The notes beneath the pieces are model-generated. The model did not search any database, was not told the origin of the DNA, and saw only the letters and a program-made list of their open reading frames with translations. This document shows positions 13,263 to 33,404 of a DNA stretch of 46,303 nt, in pieces (within the stretch, counting starts at the first letter, position 1; every line of letters begins with the position of its first letter). The stretch comes from Clostridia bacterium. GTDB taxonomy: Bacteria; Bacillota; Clostridia; UMGS1883. The position numbers were made by a program, and so were the translations under genes. The stretch spans positions 1 through 46,303 of the forward strand of contig JAZRLV010000033.1 in the NCBI GenBank assembly GCA_045646985.1. Reading direction: 5' to 3'.

Positions 13263-13264
13263 TA

Positions 13265-14164: not shown

Positions 14165-14175
14165 GGGTGGTATTT

Positions 14176-14907: not shown

Positions 14908-14937
14908 ATAGGTATAGTTTGCAACTATACCTATTTT
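14908..14937 (+). terminator. Rho-independent terminator
   Basis: ATAGGTATAGTT-TGC-AACTATACCTAT followed by a short T run. Confidence 0.65.
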
Positions 14938-14976
14938 CGTTGTTGTCATTATTTGAAATTCCTAAACGAGTCTGTG

Positions 14977-15005
14977 TTGACATTTTTTACTTGTTTCGTT
15001 ATAAT
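14977..15005 (+). promoter_or_regulatory. Consensus sigma-A promoter
   Basis: TTGACA-N17-TATAAT, exact match. Confidence 0.85.
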
Positions 15006-15045
15006 ATCTTTATAATACTCTGTAAATATCAAAGGAGAATGGAAA

Positions 15046-16065: not shown

Positions 16066-16067
16066 AT

Positions 16068-17201
16068 ATGAAAATCGGAATTATAACGTTTCATTTTGCA
16101 CATAACCAGGGTGCAGTTCTGCAATGCTATGCATTACAATGCTTTTTAAAGAAGCAAGGGTATGATGTAGAGGTTATAAACTATTGCCCGTCATACCATA
16201 CCAACCGCTATAGCGCCAAAAGAAATCCTTTTATTATGGCAGTAAGCAGCTTGAAAAAAAATAGGAACGCAAAAATTCAAAAGAAGCTTTATCATATGGT
16301 ACGCTCTTTCGCAAAAGGGATTTATATTTCTATTGCAGGAACATATAAATTGCGTGAGAAGAAATTTGCGGAATTTACAAAGACGCATCTTAATTTGTCA
16401 GGAGAGTATAAAACTCTTAAAGCACTTCAAAAAATGCCGCCCGAGTGTGATGCGTATATTTCCGGAAGTGACCAGCTATGGAATCCGGATTTAGTAAATA
16501 GTGGTTTTGACAGTGCATATTTTTTGAATTTTGGAGGAAGCAATATTAAAAAGATTACCTATGCCGTCAGCCTTAGAGAAAACTATACACAAGAAGAAAA
16601 GGATGAAATAATGACATACTGTAGAAATATAAATGTTATTTCATCACGTGAGAGAAGTGAAACTCTTTATGAACTGCTTGGAGAAAATTACACAGTGTGT
16701 GTAGACCCTACCTTGCTGCTTGAAAAAGAAGAATATGCTGATGCAGAAAACGAAATTAAGGAAGCAGAACCGTATATTTTTGTGTATGGCTTTGAATCAT
16801 CGCACAATATTCTTGAGGCAGTAGATGAAATCTCAAAAAAGACGGGACTTCGTATTATTAATGGTTCCCCGGACAGGGTTATGCTGAATAATGCGATAAA
16901 GCTTTGTAATTATGGCCCAGGTGAATTTCTCAGTTACATAAAAAATGCTGATTTTGTAATAACAAATTCCTTTCATGGAACGGCATTTTCGCTTATTTAT
17001 AATAAACAATTTGTTACGGTAGCACATACGACACGAGGAAGAAGAATGACAGAGCTGCTTGAAAAAGTTGGACTTTCGGAAAGAATCTGGAAAGAGAAGA
17101 ATGATGAATGGAAAAAAGAAATTGACTATGCTGAGGTAGAGCAAAAACGCAATGCCTTAAAGCAACAATCTGCGGAGTACCTTAATAAAAGTCTGAAATG
17201 A
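16068..17201 (+). CDS. Polysaccharide pyruvyl transferase family protein
   Basis: KIGIITFH..NQGAVLQCYAL, SGSDQLWN, DPTLLL and TNSFHG motifs. Confidence 0.88.
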   Translation: MKIGIITFHFAHNQGAVLQCYALQCFLKKQGYDVEVINYCPSYHTNRYSAKRNPFIMAVSSLKKNRNAKIQKKLYHMVRSFAKGIYISIAGTYKLREKKFAEFTKTHLNLSGEYKTLKALQKMPPECDAYISGSDQLWNPDLVNSGFDSAYFLNFGGSNIKKITYAVSLRENYTQEEKDEIMTYCRNINVISSRERSETLYELLGENYTVCVDPTLLLEKEEYADAENEIKEAEPYIFVYGFESSHNILEAVDEISKKTGLRIINGSPDRVMLNNAIKLCNYGPGEFLSYIKNADFVITNSFHGTAFSLIYNKQFVTVAHTTRGRRMTELLEKVGLSERIWKEKNDEWKKEIDYAEVEQKRNALKQQSAEYLNKSLK

Positions 17202-17211
17202 GGGGATTGTT

Positions 17212-18363
17212 ATGCCGGAATTATATAATAAAGAAAATCCGTCACAATGCTGTGGATGTAGTGCCTGTTTTGCACAGTGCCCAATGAAAGCAATAGAAAT
17301 GGTGAGGGACGGGGAAGGCTTCTTGTACCCTTTGGTTGACAAAGAAAAATGTATAGAGTGTAACGCCTGCGTACGGGTTTGTCCATTGAAATCCGGTGAC
17401 AACCCCGTGAAAAATGAAGAGACAAAAACATTTATCGCACTTAAAAACAAAGAAGAAGAAACAATCCTTTCCAGTTCATCTGGAGGTGCTTTTTCTGCAA
17501 TTTCTGATTACATATTGAATCAAGGTGGGGTTGTTTACGGTGTGGTTTTTGATGAAAAGCTACGAGCCGTACATGCACGAGCCGACAATAAAAAAGAACG
17601 AAATAAAATGCGTGTTTCAAAGTATCTGCAAAGTGACTTAATGGATACCTTCAGGAGGGTGAAGGAAGATGCAGACAATGGTATAAAGGTTCTTTTTACA
17701 GGAACGCCCTGTCAGGTTGAGGGACTTAAAAAATATCTAAAAAGAGATTATGAAAACCTTTTTTTAGCAGATGTAATTTGCCATGGGACACCAAGTCCCT
17801 TGATGTTTGCCGAACATATCAAGAATATTGAAAAAACCAGGAGGAAAAAGGTAGTAAGCTACAAATGTAGGTCTAAGGTTTATGGATGGCACCGTCACAC
17901 AGAGGAAGCTGTATTTGAAAATGGGAAAAGTGAGTCGGGGACAGTGCTTTTGCAGGAGCATAAGGTACTGTTTTATGCAGGATATACTTTGCGTCCCTCG
18001 TGTTATGAGTGCCAATTCACAAATCTTTGCAGACCGTCCGACCTTACTCTGGGAGATTTCTGGGGAATTGAAAAGTGCATGCCTGATTGGGATGACCAAA
18101 AAGGGACATCTATGCTACTTGTTAATTCTACAAAGGGAAAAAAACTGCTCGATAAAATCCAAAAAGATGTTGTTATACGTGAAAGTACGGCTTACGGCAG
18201 ACAGCCACAGCTTGAAAATCCTGCAAAAAAACCTGATGATCGTGCAGAATTCTGGACAATGTATCGCAAACACGGATATAGGTTTGTTGCGGCAAAATAC
18301 GGCAGAAATAATTTTAAATCCGGATTGAAACATACTATAAAGCGGATTTTAGGGAAAATATAG
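17212..18363 (+). CDS. F420 hydrogenase/dehydrogenase beta-subunit (FrhB)-like Fe-S protein with N-terminal 2x[4Fe-4S] ferredoxin
   Basis: CCGCSACFAQCP and CIECNACVRVCP clusters; SSSGGAF, GTPCQ, ICHG, RPSCYEC and DLTLGDFWG motifs. Confidence 0.88.
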   Translation: MPELYNKENPSQCCGCSACFAQCPMKAIEMVRDGEGFLYPLVDKEKCIECNACVRVCPLKSGDNPVKNEETKTFIALKNKEEETILSSSSGGAFSAISDYILNQGGVVYGVVFDEKLRAVHARADNKKERNKMRVSKYLQSDLMDTFRRVKEDADNGIKVLFTGTPCQVEGLKKYLKRDYENLFLADVICHGTPSPLMFAEHIKNIEKTRRKKVVSYKCRSKVYGWHRHTEEAVFENGKSESGTVLLQEHKVLFYAGYTLRPSCYECQFTNLCRPSDLTLGDFWGIEKCMPDWDDQKGTSMLLVNSTKGKKLLDKIQKDVVIRESTAYGRQPQLENPAKKPDDRAEFWTMYRKHGYRFVAAKYGRNNFKSGLKHTIKRILGKI

Positions 18364-18369
18364 TAAGTG

Positions 18370-18410
18370 ACAATCTTCACAGAGCTATGTCTTTCTGTGA
18401 AGGTTGTTTT
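18370..18410 (+). terminator. Putative terminator
   Basis: ACAATCTTCACAGA-N10-TCTGTGAAGGTTGT followed by TTT. Confidence 0.6.
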
Positions 18411-18450
18411 AAAGAAATTTTAAAATGGGCTACACACGTATAATTCGTTA

Positions 18451-18479
18451 TTGACTAAATCTCACAAATGTATTATAAT
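18451..18479 (+). promoter_or_regulatory. Sigma-A promoter of the main polysaccharide operon
   Basis: TTGACT-N17-TATAAT. Confidence 0.75.
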
Positions 18480-18535
18480 ATAGGAGTGAAATTTTGGGTA
18501 TGTTTGCACAAAACGCTCGGAAGGAGTAATAAAAA

Positions 18536-19669
18536 ATGGCTGAAAGCGAGAGAATATGGCTCTCTACTCCGACTATACACGGGGAAGAGCAGCTTTTTGT
18601 AAAAGAAGCGTTTGATACTAACTGGGTAGCACCTTTGGGGAAAAATGTTACCGAGTTTGAAAACGAAATGGCGGCTTTCGTTGGGGTAAAGGCGGCAGCA
18701 GCGATGACTGCGGGCACCCATGCACTACATCTTGCGGTAAAGCTTGCAGGGGTGAAAGAAGGGGATATTGTTATCTGCTCCGACCTTACTTTTGCGGCGA
18801 CTGTTAACCCTGTCAGCTACGAAAACGGAACGCAGGTTTTTGTAGATAGCGAGCGTGATACATGGAATATGGACCCTGCGGCACTTAAAATTGCACTTGA
18901 AAAATACAAGGGCAGGGTAAAAGCTGTTATGCTTGTGCATCTTTATGGTACTCCCTCGAAAATTGACGAAATAAAGGCACTTTGTGATGAATACGATGTA
19001 ATTCTCATAGAAGATGCGGCAGAATCGCTATCAGCTGCATATAAGGCAAAACAGACAGGTTCTTTCGGTAAATACAGTGCCGTTAGCTTTAATGGTAATA
19101 AGATAATCACATCTTCCGGCGGCGGAATGTTTCTTTCCAATGACGAGGAAGCCGTGCAGAAGGTACGCTTTTTCTCCACGCAGGCAAGAGAGCCATTCCC
19201 CCATTATCAGCATAAGGAAATCGGATATAACTATCGTATGAGTAATATCGTTGCAGGTATCGGCAGAGGGCAGCTTCTTCACCTTGAAGAACACAGAAAA
19301 CTGAAAGAAGACATATATTTCAGATATAAAGAGGGATTTAAAGATTTACCTGTTACAATGAATCCTTACGAGGATTGCAGCGTTCCAAACTTCTGGCTCA
19401 GCTGTATGTTGATTGATGAGGCAGCTATGGAGAAAACCGATCCGGAAAAAATACGCCTTGCTCTTGAAAAAGAGAATATAGAGGCACGACCCATATGGAA
19501 GCCAATGCATATGCAACCTGTGTATAAAAATAATGATTTCATTACAGCAGGCGATAACGTGGGTGAGGATATTTTTGCGAGGGGTTTGTGCCTTCCCAGT
19601 GATATAAAAATGACTGCAGAACAGCAGAACAAGGTTATAACTCTTATAAAAAAGTGCTTTGAGGGATAA
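18536..19669 (+). CDS. DegT/DnrJ/EryC1/StrS aminotransferase (PglE/EpsN-like)
   Basis: NWVAPLG, GTHALHLA, IEDAAESL, SFNGNKIITSSGGG (PLP Lys), GYNYRMSN and GLCLPS motifs. Confidence 0.95.
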   Translation: MAESERIWLSTPTIHGEEQLFVKEAFDTNWVAPLGKNVTEFENEMAAFVGVKAAAAMTAGTHALHLAVKLAGVKEGDIVICSDLTFAATVNPVSYENGTQVFVDSERDTWNMDPAALKIALEKYKGRVKAVMLVHLYGTPSKIDEIKALCDEYDVILIEDAAESLSAAYKAKQTGSFGKYSAVSFNGNKIITSSGGGMFLSNDEEAVQKVRFFSTQAREPFPHYQHKEIGYNYRMSNIVAGIGRGQLLHLEEHRKLKEDIYFRYKEGFKDLPVTMNPYEDCSVPNFWLSCMLIDEAAMEKTDPEKIRLALEKENIEARPIWKPMHMQPVYKNNDFITAGDNVGEDIFARGLCLPSDIKMTAEQQNKVITLIKKCFEG

Positions 19670-19671
19670 AA

Positions 19672-20763
19672 ATGTCAAAAATAGTTATTTTAACAAATTC
19701 AATAACAGGACTTCGCTCATTCAGAATTGAGGTTATGAAGAAATTCCGTGATGAGGGACACGATGTTAAAATATATTGTCCCGAGCATTCGGAAACAGAC
19801 GAGTTTACTGAAATTGGATGCAGAGTTTCATTTGTTAAAAATATTCAAAGAAGAGGGACAAGTATACTGACAGATATTAAGCTTTTCTTTGAATATTTAA
19901 CAATTCTTCATAAAGAAAAGCCGGATATTGTTTTTTCTTACACAATAAAACCCAATATTTACGGAGCATTGGCATGTGAATTGTTAGGGATACCCTGTGC
20001 ACCAAATATTACAGGGCTTGGCAGTGCTGTTGAAAACGGTGGAAAGTTACAGCTGCTAACTGTGTTTTTGTACAAGGCAGCATTTTTGCGTGTTAAGAAG
20101 GTCTTTTTTCAAAACAGAGAAAATATGGAGTTTTTTGAAAGGAAAAGAATTGCGAGGGGAAGACATGAGCTTCTTCCCGGTTCAGGTGTAAATCTCGAAA
20201 AGTTTACACTTCTTGAATATCCGCCTGATGACGAAATTCATTTTGCGTTCATATCACGGATAATGAAAGAAAAGGGTGCTGACCAGTACCTCGAGGCAGC
20301 GGAGTATATAAAGAAAAAATACCCGAATACTGTTTTTCATGTGTGTGGGGCTTGCGAGGAAGCTTATGAGGAAAAGCTCAGAGAGCTTCACGAAAAAGGA
20401 ATTATAAATTATCATGGCAGACTTCGTGATATACGTGAAATACATAATGTGATTCACTGCACAATTCATCCCACCTATTACCCCGAAGGAATGAGCAACG
20501 TGCTTCTTGAATCCTGTGCAAGCGGTAAGGCAATTATTACCACAAACAGAAGCGGCTGTCGTGAAATTGTTGATGACGGCATAAACGGATATGTTGTGGA
20601 ACAAAAGAATACACAGGATGTAATAGAAAAAATTGAAAAATTCCTGTCACTTTCCTATGAGGAGAAGAGAAATTTGGGAATAGCGGGACGAAAAAAGGTT
20701 GAAAAGGAATTTGACAGAAATATTGTTATTGAAAAGTATATGCAAGAGCTTAACAGGATTTAA
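19672..20763 (+). CDS. Glycosyltransferase family 4 (PglA/CapM-like)
   Basis: YTIKPNIYG, ITGLG, FFQN, PGSGV and EGMSNVLLE motifs. Confidence 0.92.
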   Translation: MSKIVILTNSITGLRSFRIEVMKKFRDEGHDVKIYCPEHSETDEFTEIGCRVSFVKNIQRRGTSILTDIKLFFEYLTILHKEKPDIVFSYTIKPNIYGALACELLGIPCAPNITGLGSAVENGGKLQLLTVFLYKAAFLRVKKVFFQNRENMEFFERKRIARGRHELLPGSGVNLEKFTLLEYPPDDEIHFAFISRIMKEKGADQYLEAAEYIKKKYPNTVFHVCGACEEAYEEKLRELHEKGIINYHGRLRDIREIHNVIHCTIHPTYYPEGMSNVLLESCASGKAIITTNRSGCREIVDDGINGYVVEQKNTQDVIEKIEKFLSLSYEEKRNLGIAGRKKVEKEFDRNIVIEKYMQELNRI

Positions 20764-20774
20764 GGAGCATACTT

Positions 20775-21692
20775 ATGGACGGATATAAAAAAATTTTTAG
20801 AAGCAGAAAGGTAAGAACTAAAATTCTGAAAATACTCAGTTTTGTTCCTGACGAAGCTATGCTGAAAATTCAGTATTATATAAAGCATAAACGAAGATTG
20901 AATTTAAAGAATCCTGAAAGATTTACTGAGAAACTGCAGTGGTATAAGCTTAATTACCATGACCCTCTTATGCGAAGATGTACGGATAAGGCAGAAGTCA
21001 GGGATGTTATAGAAGAGTGGGGCATGGGAGATATTTTGACTAAGTGTTACGGGACATTCTCCTCAGCAGATGAAATTGATTTTGATGCTTTGCCAGATTC
21101 TTTTGTTCTTAAGAGTACTTTAGGCGGTGGCGGAAATTCGGTTGTGCTTGTGCAGAGTAAAGAAAGTGCAGACATTGATGAACTTAAATCAGTTGCTTCA
21201 AAATGGGTAAAAACATCCTTGCCAAAAAAAAATTCAGGAAGAGAATGGGCATATAAAGCTGAGAAACCGAAAATTTTGGTTGAAGAATTATTGGTGGAAG
21301 AGGGGAAAGAGAAAGAGGGCGTAGATGATTTTAAGTTCATGTGTTTTAATGGAAAAGTGAGGTATATATTCATATACAGAGACAGGAAAACAAATGTAAA
21401 AAGAGCTATATATGATGAAAACTGGAATTATATTACTGTAGAGTCTGGGTATGAAAGACTTCAAGATGTTGTAGAAAAACCGGAAAACTTTACTCAAATG
21501 TGTGCTCTTGCAGAAAGACTTTCCGAAAAGTTTCCTTTTGTTAGGGTAGACTTATATAACGTAAACGGAAAAATATATTTTGGGGAATTGACGTTTTACC
21601 CGACCTCCGGGTATATTATGTTTTCACCGGATGAATTCGATTATATTATGGGTGAACATTTTATTCTTCCAAAGAAAGTGAGCGAGAAGTGA
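20775..21692 (+). CDS. TupA-like ATP-grasp fold amidoligase
   Basis: NLKNPERFTEKLQWYKL, DFKFMCFNG, RVDLYNVNGKIYFGELTF motifs. Confidence 0.9.
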   Translation: MDGYKKIFRSRKVRTKILKILSFVPDEAMLKIQYYIKHKRRLNLKNPERFTEKLQWYKLNYHDPLMRRCTDKAEVRDVIEEWGMGDILTKCYGTFSSADEIDFDALPDSFVLKSTLGGGGNSVVLVQSKESADIDELKSVASKWVKTSLPKKNSGREWAYKAEKPKILVEELLVEEGKEKEGVDDFKFMCFNGKVRYIFIYRDRKTNVKRAIYDENWNYITVESGYERLQDVVEKPENFTQMCALAERLSEKFPFVRVDLYNVNGKIYFGELTFYPTSGYIMFSPDEFDYIMGEHFILPKKVSEK

Positions 21693-22753
21693 TGAGTGGA
21701 AAAAAGATAGTGTTTTTTACCGGTTCTATGGGCAGGGGCGGCGCTGAAAGAGTAATATCCATTTTATCCGACTATCTCGTGAAAAACGGCTGGGATGTTA
21801 CTATAGTTATGCTTTTGCATCATTTTAAGAATGGATATAAGCTCAATGAAAATGTGAAAATTAAAACTTTTTTTCCTGAAAAATGCTCGAATGTAAAAAA
21901 AGCACTTTACAATCTTGTAAGAGTGCGTGCATTTATTAAAGGAGAAAGACCGGATGTTGTGGTTTCCTTTATAGCACAGAATACATTAATTTCCGGTATT
22001 GCCTGTAGTGGGCTAAAACTCAGGTATATTGCTTCAGAGAGAATTGACCCTGCAATGGTAAAAAGAAATTTCATTTATAAAAGGATTTTAAATTGTATCT
22101 ATAAAAAAGCAGATAAGGTTATTTTCCAAACGGAGAGAGCAAAGAATTATTTTAGTTATGATATTCAAAAGAACGGTGTCATAATAGGTAATCCTATAGA
22201 AATTAGCTGCGAAGCAACACGTACAGAAAAAAGAATTGTTTCTGCCGGAAGGTTTACACCACAAAAAAATCAGAAAATGCTGATAGATGCTTTTGCAAAG
22301 ATAGTAAAAAAGCATCCTGATTACATATTGGAAATATTTGGAGATGGGAAACTTAGAGCAGATTTAGAAAAACAGGTTCAAGAACTTGGTTTAGAACAGA
22401 AAGTCTTTTTACCGGGAAGTGTTCCGAATTTACACGAGCGTATGAAAAATGCAATGATTTTCGTTCTTCCTTCAAATTTTGAAGGACTTTCCAATGCTTT
22501 GTTAGAGGCAATGATGATGGGGTTTGCATGTGTGTCTACAAATTGTGCAGGTTCGGATGAAATAATTAAGAGCTGTGAAAATGGGCTTCTCATCCCGGTA
22601 GGGGATGAGAAAGCACTTGAAAATTCTGTAGAAAAACTTATCACAGACGAAGCATTATGCGAAAGAATATCAAAAAATGGAAAAGAAAGTGTTCAAAAAT
22701 ACAGACTGGCAAACATTGTAGAACAGTGGATGGAGGTCATTGAAGGGCGATGA
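21689..22753 (+). CDS. Glycosyltransferase family 4 (PglJ/PglH-like)
   Basis: GGAERV, SER, GRFTPQKNQ and EGLSNALLEAM motifs. Confidence 0.92.
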   Translation: MMSGKKIVFFTGSMGRGGAERVISILSDYLVKNGWDVTIVMLLHHFKNGYKLNENVKIKTFFPEKCSNVKKALYNLVRVRAFIKGERPDVVVSFIAQNTLISGIACSGLKLRYIASERIDPAMVKRNFIYKRILNCIYKKADKVIFQTERAKNYFSYDIQKNGVIIGNPIEISCEATRTEKRIVSAGRFTPQKNQKMLIDAFAKIVKKHPDYILEIFGDGKLRADLEKQVQELGLEQKVFLPGSVPNLHERMKNAMIFVLPSNFEGLSNALLEAMMMGFACVSTNCAGSDEIIKSCENGLLIPVGDEKALENSVEKLITDEALCERISKNGKESVQKYRLANIVEQWMEVIEGR

Positions 22754-23622
22754 AAAAACATATAAAACGAATACTAAAGTACCTTAGCAGATTTTTGCCT
22801 AGCTCTTTATACATACGATTAGGATTTCTAAGACGATTTGGCAGGCTTCCAAATCTTAAAAATCCGCAGACCTTTAACGAAAAGCTTCAATGGCTGAAAC
22901 TTCACGACAAAAATCCTGAATACTCTAAACTGGTAGATAAATACGAAGTGAAAAACTATATTGCTGAAAAAATAGGTGAAGAATATATTATTCCAACTCT
23001 CGGAGTTTGGGATAGCTTTGATGAAATAGATTTTGATAAGCTTCCCAAGCAGTTTGTTTTAAAATGCACTCATAACAGCGGCGGTCTTGTCATTTGCAAG
23101 AATAAAAGTACGCTTGATATAAAAAAGGCACGTAAACAATTAACGGGAAGTCTTAAGTCCAACTATTATTGGGCAGGGCGTGAGTGGCCGTATAAAAATG
23201 TAAAGCCCAGAATTATCGCTGAAAGATTTATGGTAGATGAGTCAGGCACTGAGCTTAAGGACTATAAATTTTTCTGCTTTGACGGCAAACCTGAATTTTT
23301 GTTTATTGCAACCGACAGACCTCACGATACAAAATTTGATTTTTTTGATATTGACTTTAACCATCTTCCGTTTACTAATGGCCATCCAAATACTGACAAG
23401 GAATTAAAGAAACCCGAAAAATATGAAGAAATGATAGAAATTGCAGCTAAATTATCAAAAGGACTTAAGCACGCAAGAATTGATTTGTATAATATAAATG
23501 GTAAGATTTATTTTGGGGAAATAACCTTTTTCCACTGGAGTGGATTTACACCATTTGAACCTGATGAATGGGATAAAAAAATTGGAGATTTTATAAAACT
23601 GCCTGCTAAAAAAAAGGCATAG
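22750..23622 (+). CDS. TupA-like ATP-grasp fold amidoligase (second copy)
   Basis: NLKNPQTFNEKLQWLKL, DYKFFCFDG, RIDLYNINGKIYFGEITF motifs. Confidence 0.92.
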   Translation: MKKHIKRILKYLSRFLPSSLYIRLGFLRRFGRLPNLKNPQTFNEKLQWLKLHDKNPEYSKLVDKYEVKNYIAEKIGEEYIIPTLGVWDSFDEIDFDKLPKQFVLKCTHNSGGLVICKNKSTLDIKKARKQLTGSLKSNYYWAGREWPYKNVKPRIIAERFMVDESGTELKDYKFFCFDGKPEFLFIATDRPHDTKFDFFDIDFNHLPFTNGHPNTDKELKKPEKYEEMIEIAAKLSKGLKHARIDLYNINGKIYFGEITFFHWSGFTPFEPDEWDKKIGDFIKLPAKKKA

Positions 23623-23635
23623 AGGAGAGAATAAA

Positions 23636-24568
23636 ATGTTTGTAACAGTGTTTACACCAGCATATAATAGGGCGAATACTCTTCATAGAGTTTATGACTC
23701 GTTAAGACAGCAAACTTACAAAAATTTTGAATGGATAATTATTGATGATGGTTCAAAGGACAACACAAGAGAAGTTGTAGAACGCTTTCTTCAAGAAGAT
23801 AATTTTTTTGAAATCAGATATTTTCATCAAACAAATCGTGGTAAGCATATTGCTACAAATGAGGCGGTAAATAAAGCAAAAGGGGAAATGTTCATTTGTC
23901 TTGATAGTGATGATGCTTGCAAGGCAAATGCGATTGAGGTTTTAATAGATGCATGGAATACAATTCCAGAAGATAAAAAAGAGGGGTATAAGGGTGTTGC
24001 ATGTAGAACTTGTGATCCTAAAACTCCTGATAGGGTTATTGGAACTATTGGCGATATGTGGATGAAGGGAAAATATGATTATTTTGATTCCAATGATACC
24101 GAGTTACGATTTATCCATAAAATCAAGGGCGAATTATGGGGAATGACACGTGTGGAGATATTAAAAAAATATCAGCAACCAAATATAGAAGGATTGCATT
24201 ATTTCCCAGAGGGAATAAATTGGTGTAATATAGGATTTGAGTATGCAACAAGATACATAAATTTTCCATTAAGATATTATTATCGAGATGATGAAAATGC
24301 GATAACTAAAAAAATCAATTCTAAAGAGAGTTATTATACAAGAGAATGGGTTTTAACTACATTAGTAAAAAAGGGATACTTTAAATATGAACCACGTTAT
24401 TTTTTAAGGAATGCAGTTGGACTTTTTCGTGATGGCATATTATCAGGAAGAAGCATTAATCAACTGTTTAAAGTCCCTGATACATTTTTAGCCTACCTGC
24501 TTTCTATTGTAGCAATGCCATTTGGAATATACCTTGCAAGCAAAGAAAAGAAAAAAAGAAAAAGTTGA
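23636..24568 (+). CDS. Glycosyltransferase family 2
   Basis: FTPAYNRA, IDDGSKD, GKHIATN, CLDSDD and FPE motifs. Confidence 0.92.
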   Translation: MFVTVFTPAYNRANTLHRVYDSLRQQTYKNFEWIIIDDGSKDNTREVVERFLQEDNFFEIRYFHQTNRGKHIATNEAVNKAKGEMFICLDSDDACKANAIEVLIDAWNTIPEDKKEGYKGVACRTCDPKTPDRVIGTIGDMWMKGKYDYFDSNDTELRFIHKIKGELWGMTRVEILKKYQQPNIEGLHYFPEGINWCNIGFEYATRYINFPLRYYYRDDENAITKKINSKESYYTREWVLTTLVKKGYFKYEPRYFLRNAVGLFRDGILSGRSINQLFKVPDTFLAYLLSIVAMPFGIYLASKEKKKRKS

Positions 24569-24596
24569 TATTTTTAGCGGTGAAAGGTAATGAGTT

Positions 24597-25520
24597 ATGA
24601 AAGAAAATTTAGTAAGTATCATAATCCCCTCATATAATGGCAGCGACAAGGTGGCTACAGCCGTCAAAAGTGTATTGAATCAGACTTATAAGAATGTCGA
24701 AGCAATAGTAGTTGACGATAACGGCAAAGGAACACAGGAGCAGCTTAAAACAGCCAAGGCGGTTAAAGAATTTGAAGAATATGAGAATTTTCACTATATT
24801 GTTCATGATGTAAATAAAAACGGCTCTGCGGCAAGAAATACAGGGGCAAAGGCTTCGCAGGGTGAATACCTTGGCTTTTTGGACGATGATGATGAATATT
24901 TACCCCATTATGTTCAAATGCATATTGATGTACACAAAACACTAAGCGAAGAATATGCACTTACCTATTGTTCCGCCGAGGAATATCGAAATGGGGTCAA
25001 GGTAAAGGAACATCGAAAAACAATGAGTGGCAGCTTGCTTTATGAGGTTCTCATACATAATGCTGTAATAGGCAGTACCTCATTAATTATAAAGAAAAGT
25101 GCTTTTGAATCTTTGGGCGGATTTGATGAAAGCTTTAAGAGACACCAGGATTGGGAATTTACTGCACGTGTAGCAGCAGATTACAAGGTGCAGGCTATTG
25201 AAGAGGTAGGTTTCAGAAGAAATCTTGAATATAGGAACTCTCCTCAAAATTATGAAACTGCGAAGGCATACAGAGTACATTATATTGAGAAAATGATGCC
25301 CTATATTAAAAGGCTTCCAAAGGAACAGCAAAAAAAGGTCATTACATCAAATTATGTTAGTTTAATAGTTCCTCTTTTACGCAAAGGAAGAATAATAAAA
25401 TTTTGTAAAGAATTTCATTATTTTAAGCTGGGGCTATTAGGAATACGAGCTGTTTTTAGAAGTATGTATAAGTATCTTTTTGTAAACAAGAATTTCTGGA
25501 CACTTAGAAAAAGAAAATAG
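24597..25520 (+). CDS. Glycosyltransferase family 2
   Basis: IIPSYN, VVDD, SAARNTG, FLDDDD and FDESFKRHQDWEF motifs. Confidence 0.92.
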   Translation: MKENLVSIIIPSYNGSDKVATAVKSVLNQTYKNVEAIVVDDNGKGTQEQLKTAKAVKEFEEYENFHYIVHDVNKNGSAARNTGAKASQGEYLGFLDDDDEYLPHYVQMHIDVHKTLSEEYALTYCSAEEYRNGVKVKEHRKTMSGSLLYEVLIHNAVIGSTSLIIKKSAFESLGGFDESFKRHQDWEFTARVAADYKVQAIEEVGFRRNLEYRNSPQNYETAKAYRVHYIEKMMPYIKRLPKEQQKKVITSNYVSLIVPLLRKGRIIKFCKEFHYFKLGLLGIRAVFRSMYKYLFVNKNFWTLRKRK

Positions 25521-25544
25521 GCTATTTATGGAGACTGCTGAGTT

Positions 25545-26795
25545 ATGGAAAAAAGAAACAATTTAATTTCCTTCCTGCAAGCATATTTGTTGTGCATTGG
25601 AGGACTTAATCAGCTGTTGGGAATTGCTCTTAAACGTAGTGACGGTATTATGATTATGAACCTGGTTCCCGTTGCACTGATTCTTGCCCTTCATTTTTTT
25701 ACAGCAGATAAAAAGCAGGATTTAAATATGAATAAAAGGGCACTTTTGTTTGTTTACTATATTGTCAGTATTATAGTTGTCAGCAAATATGCCATGCGTT
25801 ATACTACCTTTTCCTATACAGAGGCATTGGTGTATTGCTTTATACCCATCTACCTTTCCTTTTACAAGGTAGATACAGAAAAGCTTCTTAAGTATATGAT
25901 GCTTTTTTCGGTGCTGGTTATCCCATTTTCAGAACGGTTTTTTAAAGATAATGGTATAAATTATGAAACTATAGGCATGTCAACCACCTACAACACATTA
26001 CCGTTTGTTGTAGCAGCGATTATTCATTTTTATTATTACAGAAAGAACGCAACTCTTTTTACTAAGATGGGGTACATAGCAAATGCATATTATTTTCTGA
26101 AAATCGTTTTCTTAGGAAACCGTGGTCCCCTTATTTCCCTTATGGTTTTGGCAATGCTCTTGTATCTACGCAGGTTTGATGAGAAGGGTGCCCTTAAGCA
26201 GAATGCAGGTAAAACCATCTTTTTCACTCTTGTAGTTGGAATTGGGGCTATATATATAGTAAATAATATAGAAACCATTGTTATATCATTTGATGCATGG
26301 CTGAAATCAATAGGCATAGAATTAAGTGCTGTTTCAAAAACTGTTGCCAAGATGAATGCGGGTGATATTTCAAACGGAAGAAGCAATTTGTTTTCCTATG
26401 TGCTTGAGGGCATACGTGAGAGGTGGATGATTGGGCACGGTGTGGCATCCATTACATATTGGAGTAATGGTGCTATAATATATCCTCATAACTTATTTTT
26501 GCAAATGTGGTATGACGTAGGTGTGCTTATTTCCATTCCGCTTCTCTATCTTACGTTACGCTCCTTTAAAACAGCAGTATATACATCTGGGTTAAAAAAG
26601 AATTTTTTGGCAGTATTTATAATGTTGTTTACATTGTCAATTCCCAGACTTTGCTATTCGTCAGAGTTTTGGGTAAACCTACCTTTCTGGCTTATGCTTA
26701 TGTATTCTATATCACCCAATATTTACGAGGAAGCTGAAGAAGCATTGATAGAAAAAATCGCAGAGGAAACAGAGGTTGATGACAATGCAAAATAG
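25545..26795 (+). CDS. O-antigen ligase/polymerase (Wzy/WaaL-like) membrane protein
   Basis: Multi-TM; GNRG, SNGR, GHG and YPHNLFLQ (Wzy_C HN) motifs. Confidence 0.8.
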   Translation: MEKRNNLISFLQAYLLCIGGLNQLLGIALKRSDGIMIMNLVPVALILALHFFTADKKQDLNMNKRALLFVYYIVSIIVVSKYAMRYTTFSYTEALVYCFIPIYLSFYKVDTEKLLKYMMLFSVLVIPFSERFFKDNGINYETIGMSTTYNTLPFVVAAIIHFYYYRKNATLFTKMGYIANAYYFLKIVFLGNRGPLISLMVLAMLLYLRRFDEKGALKQNAGKTIFFTLVVGIGAIYIVNNIETIVISFDAWLKSIGIELSAVSKTVAKMNAGDISNGRSNLFSYVLEGIRERWMIGHGVASITYWSNGAIIYPHNLFLQMWYDVGVLISIPLLYLTLRSFKTAVYTSGLKKNFLAVFIMLFTLSIPRLCYSSEFWVNLPFWLMLMYSISPNIYEEAEEALIEKIAEETEVDDNAK

Positions 26796-28248
26796 CTTTA
26801 GTATGCGCAAAAAGGTTATATCTGGACTTTTTTGGAAATTTTCAGAGAGAATTCTTGCCCAGGTTGTGACTTTTGTAGTTTCAATTATACTTGCCAGGAT
26901 GCTTGAACCGTCTACATATGGGGCAATAGCCATTGTTAATGTTTTCATAGCACTTGCAAATGTATTTGTAAGCGATGGCTTTGGTAATGCACTTGTTCAA
27001 AAAAAGAATGCTGACGAAGTTGATTTTTCTTCCGTTTTTTATTTTAACATTGCTATGTCTGTGGTGGTGTACATAGTGGTCTTTTTATGCGCACCGTTTA
27101 TTGCTGCTTTTTATAAAACACCAATATTATGCCCGGTTCTCCGTGTGCTAGGGCTGAAGCTTATATTGGCAGGTATAAACAGCGTGCAGCATGCATATGT
27201 TTCCAGCCATATGATGTTTAAGAAGTTCTTCTGGTCAACTTTGGGAGGAACCTTAGGCAGTGCTGTTGTGGGTATAGCTATGGCGTATCTTGGCTATGGA
27301 ATATGGGCATTGGCAGCACAGTATATGTTCAATTCTCTTCTGGATACTGTTATTTTATGGCTGAGCGTAAAGTGGAGACCGAAGAAAGTGTTTTCTTTCA
27401 AAAGATTAAGCGGATTATTTTCATACGGTTGGAAAATTCTTTCCACCGCATTAGTTAGAACCGGATATAAAGAATTGAGGAGTATAGTAATCGGAAAGGC
27501 ATATACGGTTTCTGATTTGGCTCATTATTCCAAGGGAAGGAGTTTCCCCTCTCTGATAGTAACAAATATTTACGTTGCTGTAAAAAGTGTCGTTTTCCCT
27601 GCCATGTCAAGGGTGCAGGATCAAAAGCAAGTGCTTAAGACAATGACACGCCGTCTTGTACGGATTCATAGCTATACACTTTTGCCTCTTCTTATGGGTT
27701 TGGCCTTGGTAGCAGAACCTCTTGTTAAATTATTGCTGACGGAAAAGTGGCTTTTCTGTGTCCCTTACTTGCAAGCGTTTTGTATCCTTTCTTCATTGGA
27801 ACCTATACAGACAGCTAATTTGCAAGCAATTAAGGCTATCGGAAGAAGCGATATTTATCTTAAACTTGAAATAATAAAAAAGAGCATAGGGATTATTGTA
27901 TTAATAATCAGTATGCGATATGGAGTTTGGGCTATCGCAGTAGGAGAAATTGCAGCAGAACTCCTTGCTGCACTAATAAATATTTTCCCGAATAAGAAGC
28001 TTTTAGGATATGGCTATATACAGCAAATAAGAGATACTTTTTCGGCGATTGTACCGCTGTGTGCGATGGTAGTGGTTGTTGTTATTATCGGTCAAATCAA
28101 CATAGGCGTACTGCCCCTATTACTTATTCAGGTTGCTTTGGGAGCGGCAGTATATATAGGTGCCTCAGCCGTAACAAAAAATTCATCCTTTCTGTATGTG
28201 CTTTCACTCATAAATGATACTATCTTTCGGAAAAAGGTTAATGAATAA
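26785..28248 (+). CDS. wzx: Polysaccharide flippase (Wzx, WzxC-like)
   Basis: ILARMLEPSTYG, GFGNALVQ, GYGIWALAAQ, VVFPAMS and LLTEKW motifs; about 12 TMs. Confidence 0.9.
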   Translation: MQNSFSMRKKVISGLFWKFSERILAQVVTFVVSIILARMLEPSTYGAIAIVNVFIALANVFVSDGFGNALVQKKNADEVDFSSVFYFNIAMSVVVYIVVFLCAPFIAAFYKTPILCPVLRVLGLKLILAGINSVQHAYVSSHMMFKKFFWSTLGGTLGSAVVGIAMAYLGYGIWALAAQYMFNSLLDTVILWLSVKWRPKKVFSFKRLSGLFSYGWKILSTALVRTGYKELRSIVIGKAYTVSDLAHYSKGRSFPSLIVTNIYVAVKSVVFPAMSRVQDQKQVLKTMTRRLVRIHSYTLLPLLMGLALVAEPLVKLLLTEKWLFCVPYLQAFCILSSLEPIQTANLQAIKAIGRSDIYLKLEIIKKSIGIIVLIISMRYGVWAIAVGEIAAELLAALINIFPNKKLLGYGYIQQIRDTFSAIVPLCAMVVVVVIIGQINIGVLPLLLIQVALGAAVYIGASAVTKNSSFLYVLSLINDTIFRKKVNE

Positions 28249-28279
28249 TATTATATAGTGTTCTAAAAGTGGTGAGATT

Positions 28280-28807
28280 ATGAAAAAAATCATACTTATA
28301 GGCGGGGGAACTTTTTCTCCCGTTGTGATTGATGCTATTTTGGAAAATGAGAAATATGCAGAGTACAAAATAGAGGGTATTTTGGACGATAAAGGAATTT
28401 GCAGTATAAATTACAACTATCCGCATCTTGGAAAGATAGAAGATGCAGAAAAATTTGCCGCAGATGACACATTCTTTGTGATTTCAATCGGAAGTCCGAA
28501 GGTGCGCAGAATGATAGCTGAAAAATATCCTGATCTTAACTACCTGACAGTAATTGATAAATCAGCCAATATCACCGAAAATGTAAAGCTAGGTGAGGGC
28601 AGTATTGTTCTTAAAGGTGCAATTATAAACGCCTTTGCATCTCTGGGAAGCCATGTTATTGTAAATTCGGGAGCAATAGTAGACCACCATTGTCAAATAG
28701 GGAATTACAGCCATATAGGTCATGGTGTAATCACATGGGAATGTGCAAAAATAGATGAAGCACAGCACTTTTTCCCCGGAACAGTTATTAAAGGTGAAAA
28801 AATCTAA
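28280..28807 (+). CDS. PglD/NeuD-like sugar acetyltransferase (hexapeptide repeat)
   Basis: IILIGGG, GILDD, ISIGSPKVR, then hexapeptide repeats with VDHHC. Confidence 0.85.
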   Translation: MKKIILIGGGTFSPVVIDAILENEKYAEYKIEGILDDKGICSINYNYPHLGKIEDAEKFAADDTFFVISIGSPKVRRMIAEKYPDLNYLTVIDKSANITENVKLGEGSIVLKGAIINAFASLGSHVIVNSGAIVDHHCQIGNYSHIGHGVITWECAKIDEAQHFFPGTVIKGEKI

Positions 28808-28818: not shown

Positions 28819-30027
28819 ATGACAACTGCATTTAATGAGCTTTTATATATTTACGGCGATGCAATATGCGGCAGAAAATCTGTAATTAATGATGATGTAA
28901 GCCGTGATGAGATTGCGAAAAAAGCAATAGAGCAGAATGTTTTGCCTATAGTTTATTTTAATTTGTTCGGAGAGGATACAAAGAACAGATATTATCCGAT
29001 TGTAATGCAGGCATTGGCGGCAAATGAGAGAAAAATGTTTTTCCTTAATAAGCTTCTTAAGGAGATGGAAGAAAGCGACCTTTTCTGCTGTGTGCTAAAA
29101 GGTTGTACACTTGCACCTCTTTATGCATCACCTGATTTAAGAGTTTCAGGTGATGTTGATTTGCTGATAAATCCGAAAGATGAGAAAAAAGTAATAGAAT
29201 TTTTAGAAAAGCGTAATTTTATAATTCATGAACGTTATAAGGGTGGACACCACTTTGAGGCAAGACATGATAAGGCAGGGCTGTTTGAGGTACATGTCAG
29301 TGTATATGAAAAAGATTTCAGTAAATCTGTTTTAAAAGACAAATTCAAGGCAGAAGAACCGTTTGAAAGTATGGTAACAAGCTCCGGCATAGCTGTGAAT
29401 ACCCTTGGAAAAAATGATGGGCTATATTTTGTTACGGCGCATATGATAAAGCATTTTGTAAAAGACGGATTGGGACTTAGACAGATTTCTGACTGGCTTC
29501 TATACATAAAAAATTATCGTGATGTACTTAACATGGAAGAATATGAAAAAGTGATAAAAGAGCTTGGCTTTAATAAGTTTATAAATGCAATGTACACTGT
29601 GGGAAAGAAATATTTTGGAATTGAGCTTGGCGAAAACTTTGAAGAAAACCCTTTGGACATTCTTTCTGATATGGAAGAGGGCGGCTCTTTCGGACATAAT
29701 GATTCAGAGCGAAGCAACTATAAACAGCAGCTTGTAAATGAAGTATATGGAAGAAAAGAGCTTGAAAAGAAAAAAAATATTTTTATCAGATTTTTGCGCA
29801 TCCTTTTTCCTACCAGGCGTGTGCTTATAAAAAAGGGATATATAAGTTCAGAACAAAATGTTTTGTTAATACCTTTGTGTTGGGTGAAAATGTGGATTGA
29901 TTTTGTTAAAAAAGGTAAGGTTAAAAACATTGACAAGATTACCGCAACAAACGAAATTGATACACAAAAGTTTGACAAGAGATATACGATGCTTAGAAAA
30001 TATCTCTTTATAAAGAGAGATAAATAA
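28819..30027 (+). CDS. Uncharacterised nucleotidyltransferase (NTP_transf_5-like)
   Basis: VLKG..LAPLY..PDLRVSGDVDLL, FEVH and HMIKHF..GLGLRQISDW motifs. Confidence 0.8.
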   Translation: MTTAFNELLYIYGDAICGRKSVINDDVSRDEIAKKAIEQNVLPIVYFNLFGEDTKNRYYPIVMQALAANERKMFFLNKLLKEMEESDLFCCVLKGCTLAPLYASPDLRVSGDVDLLINPKDEKKVIEFLEKRNFIIHERYKGGHHFEARHDKAGLFEVHVSVYEKDFSKSVLKDKFKAEEPFESMVTSSGIAVNTLGKNDGLYFVTAHMIKHFVKDGLGLRQISDWLLYIKNYRDVLNMEEYEKVIKELGFNKFINAMYTVGKKYFGIELGENFEENPLDILSDMEEGGSFGHNDSERSNYKQQLVNEVYGRKELEKKKNIFIRFLRILFPTRRVLIKKGYISSEQNVLLIPLCWVKMWIDFVKKGKVKNIDKITATNEIDTQKFDKRYTMLRKYLFIKRDK

Positions 30028-30047
30028 AAGAAAAGGAAAATGAAATT

Positions 30048-31181
30048 ATGTATACTGATAAGACTTTTTGTCCATACCGTGTGTGCCCGATTGGTGCACA
30101 TATTGACCATCAGTATGGAGTGGTAAGTGGATTTGCCATTGACAAAGGGATTGAAATTGAATATGAAAAAACCGCAAATGGCAGTGTGAGCCTTACAAGC
30201 AGTGACTTTGAAAAAAAGGTGGAATTTTTCACAAATAAGCCGCTTATTAAAGAAAATGACTGGGCAGATTATTTGAGAGGGGCAACAGCTTCCCTTAAAA
30301 GAAACCACGATTTGTCCTATGGCATAAAGGCGCATATAAAGGGAAGCCTTCCGATAGGGGGACTATCTTCCTCGGCGGCTGTTATAATAGCATTCCTTAG
30401 TGCACTTTGCCGTGTTAATAACATAATACTTTCAAAAAATGAAATGGTTATGACAGCGCTATGGGCAGAAAATGAATTCGTAGGCGTAAGTGTGGGAAAG
30501 CTTGACCAGTCCTGCGAGGTTTATTCCAAGAAAAATCATCTTTTGTATATTGATATGAAAGATGATACATACGAGCTTATTCCCGCAAACGATAAGATGA
30601 AGCCGTTTGAAATAGCAATATTTTTCAGCGGTCTTGAAAGAAGTCTTGTCGGAAGTCAATTTAATATGCGTGTGGACGAGCTTAAAAGCAGTGCATATGC
30701 ACTCAAAGCTTTTTCAGGTATGGAATATGGAAAGTTTTCAGATACTCGTCTTAGAGATGTGCCAAGAGAGGTTTTTGAAAATCATAAGCACAAGCTTCCT
30801 GAAAATTGGAAGAAAAGAGCGGAGCATTATTACAGTGAATTTGAGCGAGTTCAAAAAGGTACAGAGGCTTGGAGAAACGGTGATATAGAAGAATTTGGCA
30901 AGCTTTCCTTTGAAAGCGGACAAAGCAGTATCGTAAATTATGAAACAGGCTCCGAGCAGCTTAAGAAAATTCACGAAATAATGCTTGAAACCGATGGAAT
31001 ATATGGCGGCAGATTTAGCGGAGCAGGATTTAAGGGTTGTGCAATGGCACTAGTAAATCCTGAGTATAAAGAGAAGATAGAATTTGAGGTAACAAAAAAA
31101 TATCTCAAAGAATTTCCTGAACTTGAAGGAAAATTCGGCGTTTATTTTGCAAATACAGCAGACGGAGTGAAACTAAATTAA
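30048..31181 (+). CDS. GHMP sugar kinase, galacturonokinase-like
   Basis: [37 protein letters not shown] and [12 protein letters not shown] motifs. Confidence 0.85.
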
Positions 31182-31197
31182 GAAAGGGTTTGAGATA

Positions 31198-32382
31198 ATG
31201 AAAATTGCAGTAGCAGGAACAGGATACGTAGGACTTTCAAATGCAATTTTGCTTGCACAGAAAAATCAGGTGTTTGCTGTTGATATTATTCCTGAAAAGG
31301 TGGAAATGATAAACAGTGGCAAATCACCTATTGTAGATAAAGAAATAGAGGAATATCTCAGAGAAAAAGAGCTTAATCTTACTGCGACAACAGACTGTCA
31401 AGAGGCATACAAGGATGCAGACTTTGTGATTATTTCCACACCTACCAATTATGACCCGAAGTTGAATTATTTTGATACTTCCAGTGTTGAAAATGTAATA
31501 GAGCTTGTAATGAGCATTAATCCTGATGCAGTTATGGTTATAAAATCCACTGTTCCTGTGGGATACACAGAAAGTGTGAGAGAAAAATATAATTGCAAAA
31601 ACATTATTTTCTCTCCCGAATTTCTGCGTGAGGGAAAAGCACTTTACGACAATTTATATCCATCAAGAATCATCGTGGGTGCACCGCTTGATGATGAGAA
31701 AATCTGCGAAAAGGCACGCACCTTTGCATCGCTTTTAGCAGAGGGTGCAATAAAGGAAGATATCCCCGTTCTCTTTACAAATCCTACAGAGGCGGAGGCA
31801 GTTAAGCTTTTTGCAAATACTTACCTTGCGCTGAGGGTATCGTTTTTTAATGAGCTTGATACATATGCAGAAGTCAGGGGCCTTGACACAAAGCAAATTA
31901 TTGAGGGTGTAGGACTTGACCCGAGAATCGGAAGCCATTATAATAACCCGTCATTCGGTTACGGAGGTTACTGCCTGCCCAAAGACACAAAACAGCTTCT
32001 TGCAAATTTCAATGATGTTCCAAATAATATTGTTCGTGCAATAGTTGATGCGAACAGTACCCGTAAGGACTTTATTGCAGACAGAATTATAGAGAAAAAT
32101 CCAAAGGTTGTCGGAATATACCGTCTGACAATGAAATCAAATTCTGATAATTTCCGTCAAAGCTCTATTCAGGGAGTTATGAAGCGTATAAAGGCAAAGG
32201 GAATACCTGTTGTTGTTTATGAGCCAACACTCAAGGAGGAAAGCTTCTTTAATTCTGAAGTAATAAGAGACCTTGATGAATTTAAGAAAATATCTGATGT
32301 CATTATTGCAAACAGATACAGCGATGATATAGCAGATGTAATTGATAAAGTCTATACACGTGACCTTTATTTTCGTGATTGA
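31198..32382 (+). CDS. ugd: UDP-glucose 6-dehydrogenase
   Basis: [47 protein letters not shown] and DNFR motifs. Confidence 0.96.
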
Positions 32383-32396
32383 TAGGAGAAAATATT

Positions 32397-33404
32397 ATGT
32401 CCAATTTTAAAAAATATGATGGCAGCAGGAAAATACTTGTTACAGGCGCAGCGGGATTTATAGGCTTTCACCTTTCAAAAAGAATTCTTGAGGAAGGCGG
32501 CGAGGTAATCGGATTTGATAATCTTAATGATTACTACGAGGTTTCTCTTAAAGAAAGCCGTCTTGAAATTCTCGGAAAATACAAAAAGTTTACTTTTGTA
32601 AAAGGAAATCTTGCTGATAAAGAAGCTATAAAGAATATCTTTGAAACCTATGAGCCCGATATTATTGTAAACCTTGCGGCGCAGGCAGGGGTAAGGTATT
32701 CAATCGACAATCCCGATGCATATATAGAAAGTAATATTATAGGATTCTATAATATTTTAGAGGCATGCCGCAAGTATAAAACGGAGCACCTTATATATGC
32801 GTCAAGCTCCTCTGTATACGGAAATCAAAAAAAGACTCCGTTTTCAACGGACGATAATGTTGACCATCCGATAAGTCTTTATGCTGCTACAAAAAAATCT
32901 AATGAGCTTATGGCGTTTACCTACAGCCATTTATATAATATACCCTGTACGGGACTTAGATTTTTTACAGTATACGGACCATACGGCAGACCTGATATGG
33001 CATATTTCTCCTTTACAAAGAAAATTATGAACGGGGAAAAAATCAAGATATTTAACAACGGAGATATGTATCGTGATTTTACCTATGTAGACGACATCGT
33101 TCAGGGTATTATGAATATGCTGCTCAACGCTCCAAAGCCTGACGAAAACGGAGATTGTGCAAAAGTATACAATATTGGAAATAATAATCCTGAAAAGCTG
33201 ATGTATTTTATAGAAACACTTGAAAAAGCAATAGGAAAAACTGCACAGAAAGAATTTTTACCCATGCAGCCGGGTGACGTATACCAAACCTATGCAGATG
33301 TGTCGGAGCTTCAGAAAGATTTTAATTTCAAACCCTCGACATCTATAGAGGAGGGCCTTGGTAAATTTGCAAAATGGTATTTTGAATATTACGGAGAAAA
33401 TTAA
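32397..33404 (+). CDS. UDP-glucuronate 4-epimerase (NAD-dependent, CapI/WcaG-like)
   Basis: TGAAGFIG, LAAQAGVRYS, ASSSSVYG, YAATKK, FFTVYGPYGRPDMA and MQPGDV motifs; ATG 32397 with AGGAG RBS. Confidence 0.92.
   Translation: MSNFKKYDGSRKILVTGAAGFIGFHLSKRILEEGGEVIGFDNLNDYYEVSLKESRLEILGKYKKFTFVKGNLADKEAIKNIFETYEPDIIVNLAAQAGVRYSIDNPDAYIESNIIGFYNILEACRKYKTEHLIYASSSSVYGNQKKTPFSTDDNVDHPISLYAATKKSNELMAFTYSHLYNIPCTGLRFFTVYGPYGRPDMAYFSFTKKIMNGEKIKIFNNGDMYRDFTYVDDIVQGIMNMLLNAPKPDENGDCAKVYNIGNNNPEKLMYFIETLEKAIGKTAQKEFLPMQPGDVYQTYADVSELQKDFNFKPSTSIEEGLGKFAKWYFEYYGEN

Follow-up and report, generated by a model that had tools for sequence, protein, structure and literature searches.

We describe a sugar kinase encoded at positions 30048-31181 of a 46,303-nucleotide stretch of Clostridia DNA (the window; contig C33 of an assembly of 1.53 Mb and 77% completeness). 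The comparisons below give good support for placing this bacterial kinase in the galacturonokinase (GalAK) clade of GHMP sugar-1-kinases, and not with ordinary galactokinase (GalK). We propose that it probably feeds a uronate salvage route, in which a PF00483 nucleotidyltransferase and a UDP-glucuronate (UDP-GlcA) 4-epimerase would carry the activated sugar acid into a polysaccharide.

The kinase has three Pfam domains, PF00288 (GHMP_kinases_N, 47.8 bits), PF08544 (GHMP_kinases_C, 29.8 bits) and PF10509 (GalKase_gal_bdg, 28.4 bits), all above their cut-offs. It misses all five NCBIfam galK cut-offs, scoring 191.8 against 226.65 bits for TIGR00131 and 229.1 against 443, 186.8 against 385, 173.6 against 499 and 101.6 against 509 bits for the remaining four. 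Its best relatives of solved structure are archaeal GalKs (E 4e-45). By BLASTP, the match to the Camellia galacturonokinase P0208 (216 bits, 37% identity, E 6e-71) exceeded that to E. coli GalK (149 bits, 30% identity, E 6e-46). A HMMER scan of 1.84 billion cluster representatives, from a library clustered at 50% identity, returned 489 proteins of the kinase family at E 1e-30 or better. UniRef/NCBI gives the name galacturonokinase to two of the matches listed, one of them from Camellia sinensis (P0208) and the other from Tetracentron sinense (P0216).

Maximum-likelihood trees covered the window kinase, bacterial representatives, five kinases from the even Clostridia sample introduced below, both plant proteins, and GalK from E. 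coli together with eight from Clostridia that score above the TIGR00131 cut-off; three more distant GalK-like proteins served as outgroup. Fourteen of the 92 full-length representatives were dropped as chimeric or misaligned and the remainder was thinned. A quick 63-row tree under the posterior mean site frequency (PMSF) model placed the window kinase, 48 bacterial rows and both plant rows in one clade, with a Shimodaira-Hasegawa approximate likelihood ratio test (SH-aLRT) value of 98; the GalK clade received 96. In a careful 32-row LG+G4 tree, the ultrafast bootstrap (UFBoot)/SH-aLRT values were 100/100 for the kinase-plus-plant clade and 100/97 for the GalK clade. The plant galacturonokinases nest within the bacterial diversity of the kinase clade. 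Since the Camellia match exceeds the E. coli GalK match and both trees recover the grouping, it is not a product of chance. An initial annotation of this DNA had matched the kinase to plant GalAK and had named BLASTP and phylogeny as the check; with both now run, the kinase groups with the plant-annotated GalAKs and apart from GalK.

Several unusual proteins were seen in these searches. Two of ~905 aa (P0287 and P0288) carry a GalAK-like kinase at ~515-902 behind an N-terminal half that is Wzx-flippase-like only by language-model features; each is a genuine fusion or the result of two genes called as one. Long plant forms of the kinase look like merged gene models, and no kinase-transferase fusion of the GalAK-like clade was found among 10 matches in longer proteins.

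Signature residues agree with this placement. Columns were compared across nine GalKs, 49 rows of the bacterial clade and two plant rows, with residues numbered as in E. coli GalK:

Glu34: Glu in 9/9 GalKs; Ala in 45/49 bacterial clade rows and 2/2 plant rows; Ala17 in the window kinase.
Tyr38: Tyr in 9/9 GalKs; His in 49/49 bacterial clade rows and 2/2 plant rows; His21 in the window kinase.
Gly27: Gly in 9/9 GalKs; Tyr in 41/49 bacterial clade rows and 2/2 plant rows; Tyr in the window kinase.
Asn30: Asn in 9/9 GalKs; Cys in 39/49 bacterial clade rows and 2/2 plant rows; Cys in the window kinase.
Arg227: Arg in 9/9 GalKs; Val in 42/49 bacterial clade rows and 2/2 plant rows; Val in the window kinase.

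The window kinase thus departs from the GalK signature PGRVNLIGEHTDY with its Glu34 and Tyr38, the former of which we take to be the binder of the galactose C6 hydroxyl. The replacement of this Glu by Ala, already pointed out in the initial annotation, occurs in 0/9 GalK rows, and both it and a Tyr-to-Phe replacement discussed below were also seen in a HMMER alignment to the archaeal GalK structure 2cz9. All 71 closer relatives of the window kinase have the Ala plus His signature. Arg28 is retained in 48/49 rows of the bacterial clade, and His35, Asp37 and Asp174 in 49/49. The window kinase has in common with GalK of the Leloir pathway (TIGR00131) the fold family, the domain order, the catalytic equivalents Arg28 and Asp174, and His35 and Asp37. 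Motifs common to the plant galacturonokinases and the bacterial kinase are PYR[IV]CP[IL]GAH[IV]DHQ, RAEHY.SE and SGAGF[KR]GC, and all kinase motifs quoted in the initial annotation are present in the translation of 30048-31181.

The kinase has a conserved partner. In 67 of 81 kinase loci (the window and 80 related loci from species-representative genomes, with genes counted by tblastn), a PF00483 sugar-1-phosphate nucleotidyltransferase of ~245 aa lies directly downstream of the kinase, within 150 bases and on the same strand. These transferases are 58-73% identical to each other. Twelve loci are without any transferase, namely the window, seven of its subclade, two in which the contig ends at the kinase, L025 and L028. 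The window genome nevertheless has an intact transferase orthologue on contig C23 (G000:C23:2846-3583), with 56% identity to the L016 copy, no internal stops and a PF00483 score of 110.8 bits against a cut-off of 21.2; a 2-hydroxyacid dehydrogenase, a Pfs-like phosphorylase and LuxS are encoded in its neighbourhood. The transferases reach no NCBIfam equivalog cut-off, the best for the C23 copy being AglF with 79.7 against 400 bits, and MurU and HddC are matched weakly. No PF01704 match was found in the window genome, in a search that also matched in none of 14 control genomes. Gene order and family membership suggest that the PF00483 transferase, and not the PF14907 protein encoded next to the window kinase, is the likely pyrophosphorylase.

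The pairing was also observed across 150 scored genomes, sampled evenly from the Clostridia, the class of the window organism. A true GalK is present in 61 of them, and 15 have a kinase of the window tier, which scores 179-206 bits against TIGR00131 and >500 bits against the window kinase. The transferase, at no less than 50% identity, was found in all 15 kinase-bearing genomes and in only 2 of the other 135; these two (G033, 96% complete, and G069, 62% complete) belong to one genus and match at 68-74% identity. Kinase and transferase are adjacent in 12 of the 15 genomes, one gene apart in one, and unlinked only in the window genome and G085. G085 is of the window genus; another member of that genus, G052 (98% complete), lacks kinase and transferase alike. 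Also common among the sampled Clostridia are GalK-like GHMP kinases of a third tier (open frames of ~420-437 aa), which reach 130-157 bits against TIGR00131 and only ~40 bits against the window kinase, and which fall in neither the GalK nor the GalAK-like clade; some genomes with these kinases have a paralogue of the transferase that is 40-46% identical to it.

In the window, the kinase and three neighbours are the final four genes of one co-directional Wzx/Wzy-type polysaccharide locus at 12600-33404, in which the list of open reading frames (ORFs) and Pfam scans place every gene on the plus strand:

12600..28807, plus strand: the rest of the Wzx/Wzy-type polysaccharide locus, the proposed consumer of UDP-uronates (Pfam scans).
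28819..30027, plus strand: a PF14907 (NTP_transf_5) protein of 402 aa (Pfam, 105.9 bits against a cut-off of 31.2).
30048..31181, plus strand: the GalAK-type GHMP anomeric sugar kinase of 377 aa, a proposed D-galacturonate (possibly also D-glucuronate) 1-kinase (Pfam, trees, signature residues).
31198..32382, plus strand: a UDP-glucose 6-dehydrogenase (ugd; de novo UDP-GlcA) of 394 aa (three UDPG_MGDP_dh domains; TIGR03026).
32379..33404, plus strand: a UDP-glucuronate 4-epimerase-type short-chain dehydrogenase/reductase (UDP-GlcA to and from UDP-galacturonate, UDP-GalA) of 341 aa (Epimerase/GDP_Man_Dehyd; PDB matches).

The four co-directional ORFs fill exactly the range given in the initial annotation, 28819..33404, which had put the kinase between an uncharacterised nucleotidyltransferase (the PF14907 protein) and the ugd and epimerase genes. 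Successive genes are separated by a 20-base gap, a 16-base gap and a 4-base overlap, and AAGGAAA stands ~10 bases 5' of the kinase ATG. The dehydrogenase scores 343.7 bits against TIGR03026, above its cut-off of 189.8, and 644 bits against the equivalog NF011631, under its cut-off of 757. The top PDB sequence match of the epimerase is 5u4q (E 2.7e-120), for which the depositor name is generic, followed by 6zl6, 6zla and 6zld (E 5.8e-53). PMC10107529 identifies 6ZLD as the UDP-GlcA 4-epimerase of Bacillus cereus (BcUGAepi) with UDP-GlcA bound. The relation to 6zl6 and 6zld suggests that ORF 32379-33404 encodes a UDP-glucuronate 4-epimerase.

The epimerase gene ties the kinase to uronates across the wider set. 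Its orthologues flank the kinase in relatives at 53-93% identity, and counted at no less than 50% identity they occur in 52 of the 81 kinase loci, 43 of which also have the transferase. Seven of the 15 kinase-bearing sampled genomes are without a TIGR03026 (ugd-type) match at E 1e-30 or better. The search was repeated at E 0.001 in five genomes (G144, G010, G057, G109 and G044). G144 (99% complete) and G010 (97%) gave no TIGR03026 match above 26 bits in this recheck; in G057 a fragment of ugd stands where a contig ends, and this genome was excluded from the ugd-less count. G109 and G044 have the kinase-transferase pair with neither epimerase nor ugd, which we regard as neutral. Both G144 and G010 carry the epimerase orthologue (70% and 64% identity, respectively) next to the kinase and transferase. 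In a genome that lacks UDP-glucose dehydrogenase, a UDP-uronate epimerase must be supplied with UDP-uronate by other means, which the kinase and transferase would provide. The window genome itself encodes a UxaC hexuronate isomerase (664 bits) and two GH28-like proteins, and free hexuronates are therefore expected in the cytoplasm of the window organism.

Upstream of the final four genes, Pfam scans of 12600..28807 identified an initiating sugar transferase, a formyltransferase, a PIG-L deacetylase, and GT2 and GT1 glycosyltransferases, followed by a pyruvyl transferase with an FrhB-like partner, a DegT aminotransferase, Wzy, Wzx and a PglD-like acetyltransferase. The polysaccharide pyruvyl transferase and the FrhB/FdhB-like iron-sulfur protein after it occupy 16068-18363. 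Two TupA-like ATP-grasp genes (PF14305) lie at 20775-21692 and 22750-23622. This family is tied to the amide-bonding of amino acids to uronic acids, and its presence fits a capsule with amidated uronates. A DctM-like gene, which the initial annotation had put in the same locus as a transporter, is indeed present at 8754-10112, but it is on the minus strand, ~19 kb from the final four genes and outside the operon that starts at 12600, and a link to the pathway is unsupported. This ORF scores under the cut-offs for tripartite ATP-independent periplasmic (TRAP) permeases, and no DctP or DctQ was found beside it among the ORFs listed. Downstream of the locus, at 36642-36977, an ORF of 111 aa has a lipoprotein-like N-terminus (...LFTACGNN) and a low-complexity tail rich in Asp, Asn and Gly.

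From these observations we infer the following route. The kinase would phosphorylate free cytoplasmic D-galacturonate (GalA) at C1 with ATP; D-glucuronate (GlcA) is possibly also a substrate because of Phe205, a substitution treated below. The C23 PF00483 transferase would then convert the uronate-1-phosphate to a nucleotide sugar, most likely the UDP form, and the 4-epimerase encoded beside the kinase would equilibrate UDP-GalA and UDP-GlcA. Glycosyltransferases of the surrounding Wzx/Wzy locus would use these sugars, with possible amidation of the uronate carboxylates by the two TupA-like ATP-grasp enzymes. Next to the kinase, ugd provides a parallel de novo route, so the kinase route would here be a salvage branch. 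The salvage of uronic acid into a surface glycan that the initial annotation had put forward is thus supported in part: the path from sugar-1-phosphate to nucleotide sugar is plausible from gene content, with the flow into the capsule following as a prediction. A bolder version, which we offer tentatively, is that kinase, PF00483 transferase and epimerase might form a widespread bacterial cassette that makes UDP-uronates from free, diet-derived GalA or GlcA. In this version the cassette would be the sole UDP-uronate source in the ugd-less G144 and G010, and the Phe variant would handle both C4 epimers.

Kinase and nucleotidyltransferase pairs are known for other sugars. AmgK/MurU and HddA/HddC each combine a sugar kinase with a PF00483 nucleotidyltransferase, and Fkp serves fucose salvage in Bacteroides. 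These systems resemble the cassette in activating a sugar in two steps, by kinase and nucleotidyltransferase, from neighbouring genes. They differ from it in that AmgK lies outside the GHMP kinases, the substrate of HddA is a heptose phosphate, Fkp is a fusion that uses L-fucose and GTP, and none of them is known to handle uronic acids. The closest parallel is found in plants. As described in PMC8636097, Arabidopsis At3g10700 GalAK phosphorylates GalA and the PF01704 pyrophosphorylase SLOPPY then makes UDP-GalA, a route that runs beside de novo synthesis by UGD and a 4-epimerase. The plant GalAK (EC 2.7.1.44) falls in the same GHMP clade as the window kinase, and the logic described there for GalAK and SLOPPY (USP), a kinase followed by a pyrophosphorylase beside a de novo route, is the same as that proposed for the bacterium. 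The bacterial system differs in the sequence of its kinase, in the Phe at the YNxR position, in the location of its genes in a capsule locus, and in its proposed second enzyme, a small PF00483 transferase and not a PF01704 USP. The glucuronokinase (GlcAK) of plants and zebrafish is likewise a GHMP kinase that makes uronate-1-phosphate for UDP-uronate salvage (PMC2823444; see also PMC3938481). The window kinase differs from GlcAK in lying in the GalAK/GalK branch.

Several observations weigh against the proposed uronate salvage. At the YNxR motif, the tyrosine (Tyr223) present in 2/2 plant rows and 9/9 GalKs is Phe205 in the window kinase. This position is Tyr in 29, Phe in 19 and Leu in 1 of the 49 bacterial clade rows, and Phe in 58 and Tyr in 13 of the 71 closer relatives. 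Across these 71 kinase loci, whose members are not independent relatives, an epimerase orthologue is present in 43/58 Phe-type and 3/13 Tyr-type loci. The tyrosine may either define the GalAK family or tune C4 selectivity only. The work of Yang and colleagues in 2009, which characterised GalAK and its mutants, is reported to have found that a Tyr-to-Phe mutant of plant GalAK also takes GlcA; a literature search for GalAK with Y250F found no paper. Of the two statements made on this residue in the initial annotation, the substitution is confirmed, while relaxed discrimination between GalA and GlcA goes back to that reported mutational result and is not carried forward as a finding.

Other points on the same side concern the kinase clade and its partner. 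The kinase is only 37% identical to plant GalAK, in a clade deep enough for a change of substrate; the plant galacturonokinase labels are annotations of orthologues and not of the assayed Arabidopsis protein, and we know of no bacterial clade member of known activity. The transferase is without a close characterised relative (best PDB match RmlA, E 5e-13), and in the window genome it is unlinked to the kinase. The 96%-complete G033 carries the transferase without the kinase, and together with G069 it indicates that the transferase may serve a different kinase as well. Since related genomes are not independent of one another, we attach no statistical claim to the co-occurrence. Finally, in four sampled genomes that have kinase and transferase (G109, G044, G095 and G051), no epimerase orthologue lies within 4 kb of the former and no ugd-family match was obtained, and a whole-genome search of G109 and G044 for the epimerase found none at E 1e-40 or better.

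These four genomes fit any sugar as well as a uronate, and they bear on the strongest alternative, in which the kinase is an anomeric kinase for another sugar that presents no C6 hydroxyl to the enzyme (L-arabinose, a 6-deoxy or 6-amido hexose, or an N-acetylated hexuronate) and the transferase product is unrelated to GalA and GlcA. Loss of the GalK Glu suits any sugar without a free C6-OH, the depth of the clade and its distance from the plant enzyme leave room for such a change, and matches to the transferase assign it no specificity. We nevertheless regard this explanation as unlikely, if deserving of real attention. The plant galacturonokinases nest in the clade and have its full signature in common with it, no other third gene occurs in the loci as often as that for the UDP-GlcA 4-epimerase-type protein, and two near-complete genomes have the epimerase beside the pair with no ugd.

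The uronate salvage proposed here assigns the second step to the PF00483 transferase, whereas the initial annotation had suggested the adjacent PF14907 protein (28819-30027) as the enzyme that turns uronate-1-phosphate into UDP-uronate. Only 20 bases separate its gene from the kinase, the family clusters with the kinase in 33 of the 81 loci, and the window subclade, which lost the adjacent PF00483 gene, always has a PF14907 gene within the cassette. The protein is, however, modelled with a Pol-beta-type nucleotidyltransferase core (AlphaFold; predicted local distance difference test, pLDDT, 87.4), with K94 G95 ... D112 D114 ... E157 H159 invariant across 29 homologues. A sequence search of the PDB gave nothing for it at E 1 or better. 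The nearest folds to the model by Foldseek are LnuA, ANT(2'')-Ia, MenT toxins and CCA-adding enzymes, all weak matches (TMq 0.2-0.3); these modify antibiotic or RNA hydroxyls, and there is no sugar-1-phosphate pyrophosphorylase among them. Of 151 sampled genomes, 64 have PF14907, comprising 13 of the 15 with the kinase and 51 without it. A ugd-type (TIGR03026) gene is found less than 3 kb from PF14907 in 12 of the 64, with distances judged by eye (the window genome, G052, G036, G071, G015, G037, G012, G027, G033, G096, G127 and G085), and one of these, G052, has no GalAK-like kinase. The Pol-beta-type core and the presence in 51 kinase-less genomes, often beside ugd, make PF14907 a poor pyrophosphorylase candidate. 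With the usual PF00483 partner retained in the window genome, we consider this assignment very improbable and have dropped it in favour of that partner. PF14907 thus tracks uronate-containing polysaccharide loci generally and may have an unrecognised role there; a single mention of it was found in the literature, as uncharacterised.

The remaining two alternatives concern the kinase reaction itself. An ordinary, divergent galactokinase feeding UDP-Gal to a capsule or to the Leloir pathway would agree with the best NCBIfam and PDB names, which are galactokinase, and with two sources that label clade members as such. The scores under all five galK cut-offs, the loss of Glu34 and Tyr38 that are invariant in true GalKs, and the tree separation from GalK (98 and 100/100) make this highly improbable. 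A true GalK moreover coexists with the window-type kinase in 9 of the 15 kinase-bearing sampled genomes, and the surroundings of the kinase show no galT or galM context. No GalT gene adjoins it, and a search for the GalT C-terminal domain (PF02744), which matched in 6 control genomes, found none in the 77%-complete window genome. Equally hard to credit is phosphorylation of a lipid-linked or polymer-bound capsule residue as a decoration: the kinase does have modification enzymes as neighbours where a polysaccharide operon ends, but a soluble sugar-1-phosphate is the product to be expected of a kinase so tightly paired with a sugar-1-phosphate nucleotidyltransferase, and to our knowledge the characterised relatives in its GHMP branch all act on free sugars at C1.

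In agreement with the initial annotation, which knew of no characterised bacterial example, no bacterial galacturonokinase was found in the literature searched or among the matches listed; the literature found concerns plants or cites the plant enzyme, apart from one study of RmlA substrates. Bacterial activation of uronic acids is taught as strictly de novo, by UDP-glucose dehydrogenase and then a 4-epimerase. Salvage by a kinase and a transferase would change that picture, and it would explain the use of a UDP-GlcA 4-epimerase in ugd-less genomes. PMC7984243 describes the plant GalA kinase as too unstable and weakly active for the production of GalA-1-phosphate, and a suitable kinase as lacking; bacterial kinases with a dedicated transferase could fill this gap in UDP-GalA synthesis. 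Uronate salvage would also tie capsule and exopolysaccharide synthesis in gut and rumen Clostridia and Bacteroidales to the products of pectin breakdown. If so, the capsule composition of ugd-less gut Clostridia such as G144 and G010 would depend on the dietary pectin of the host.

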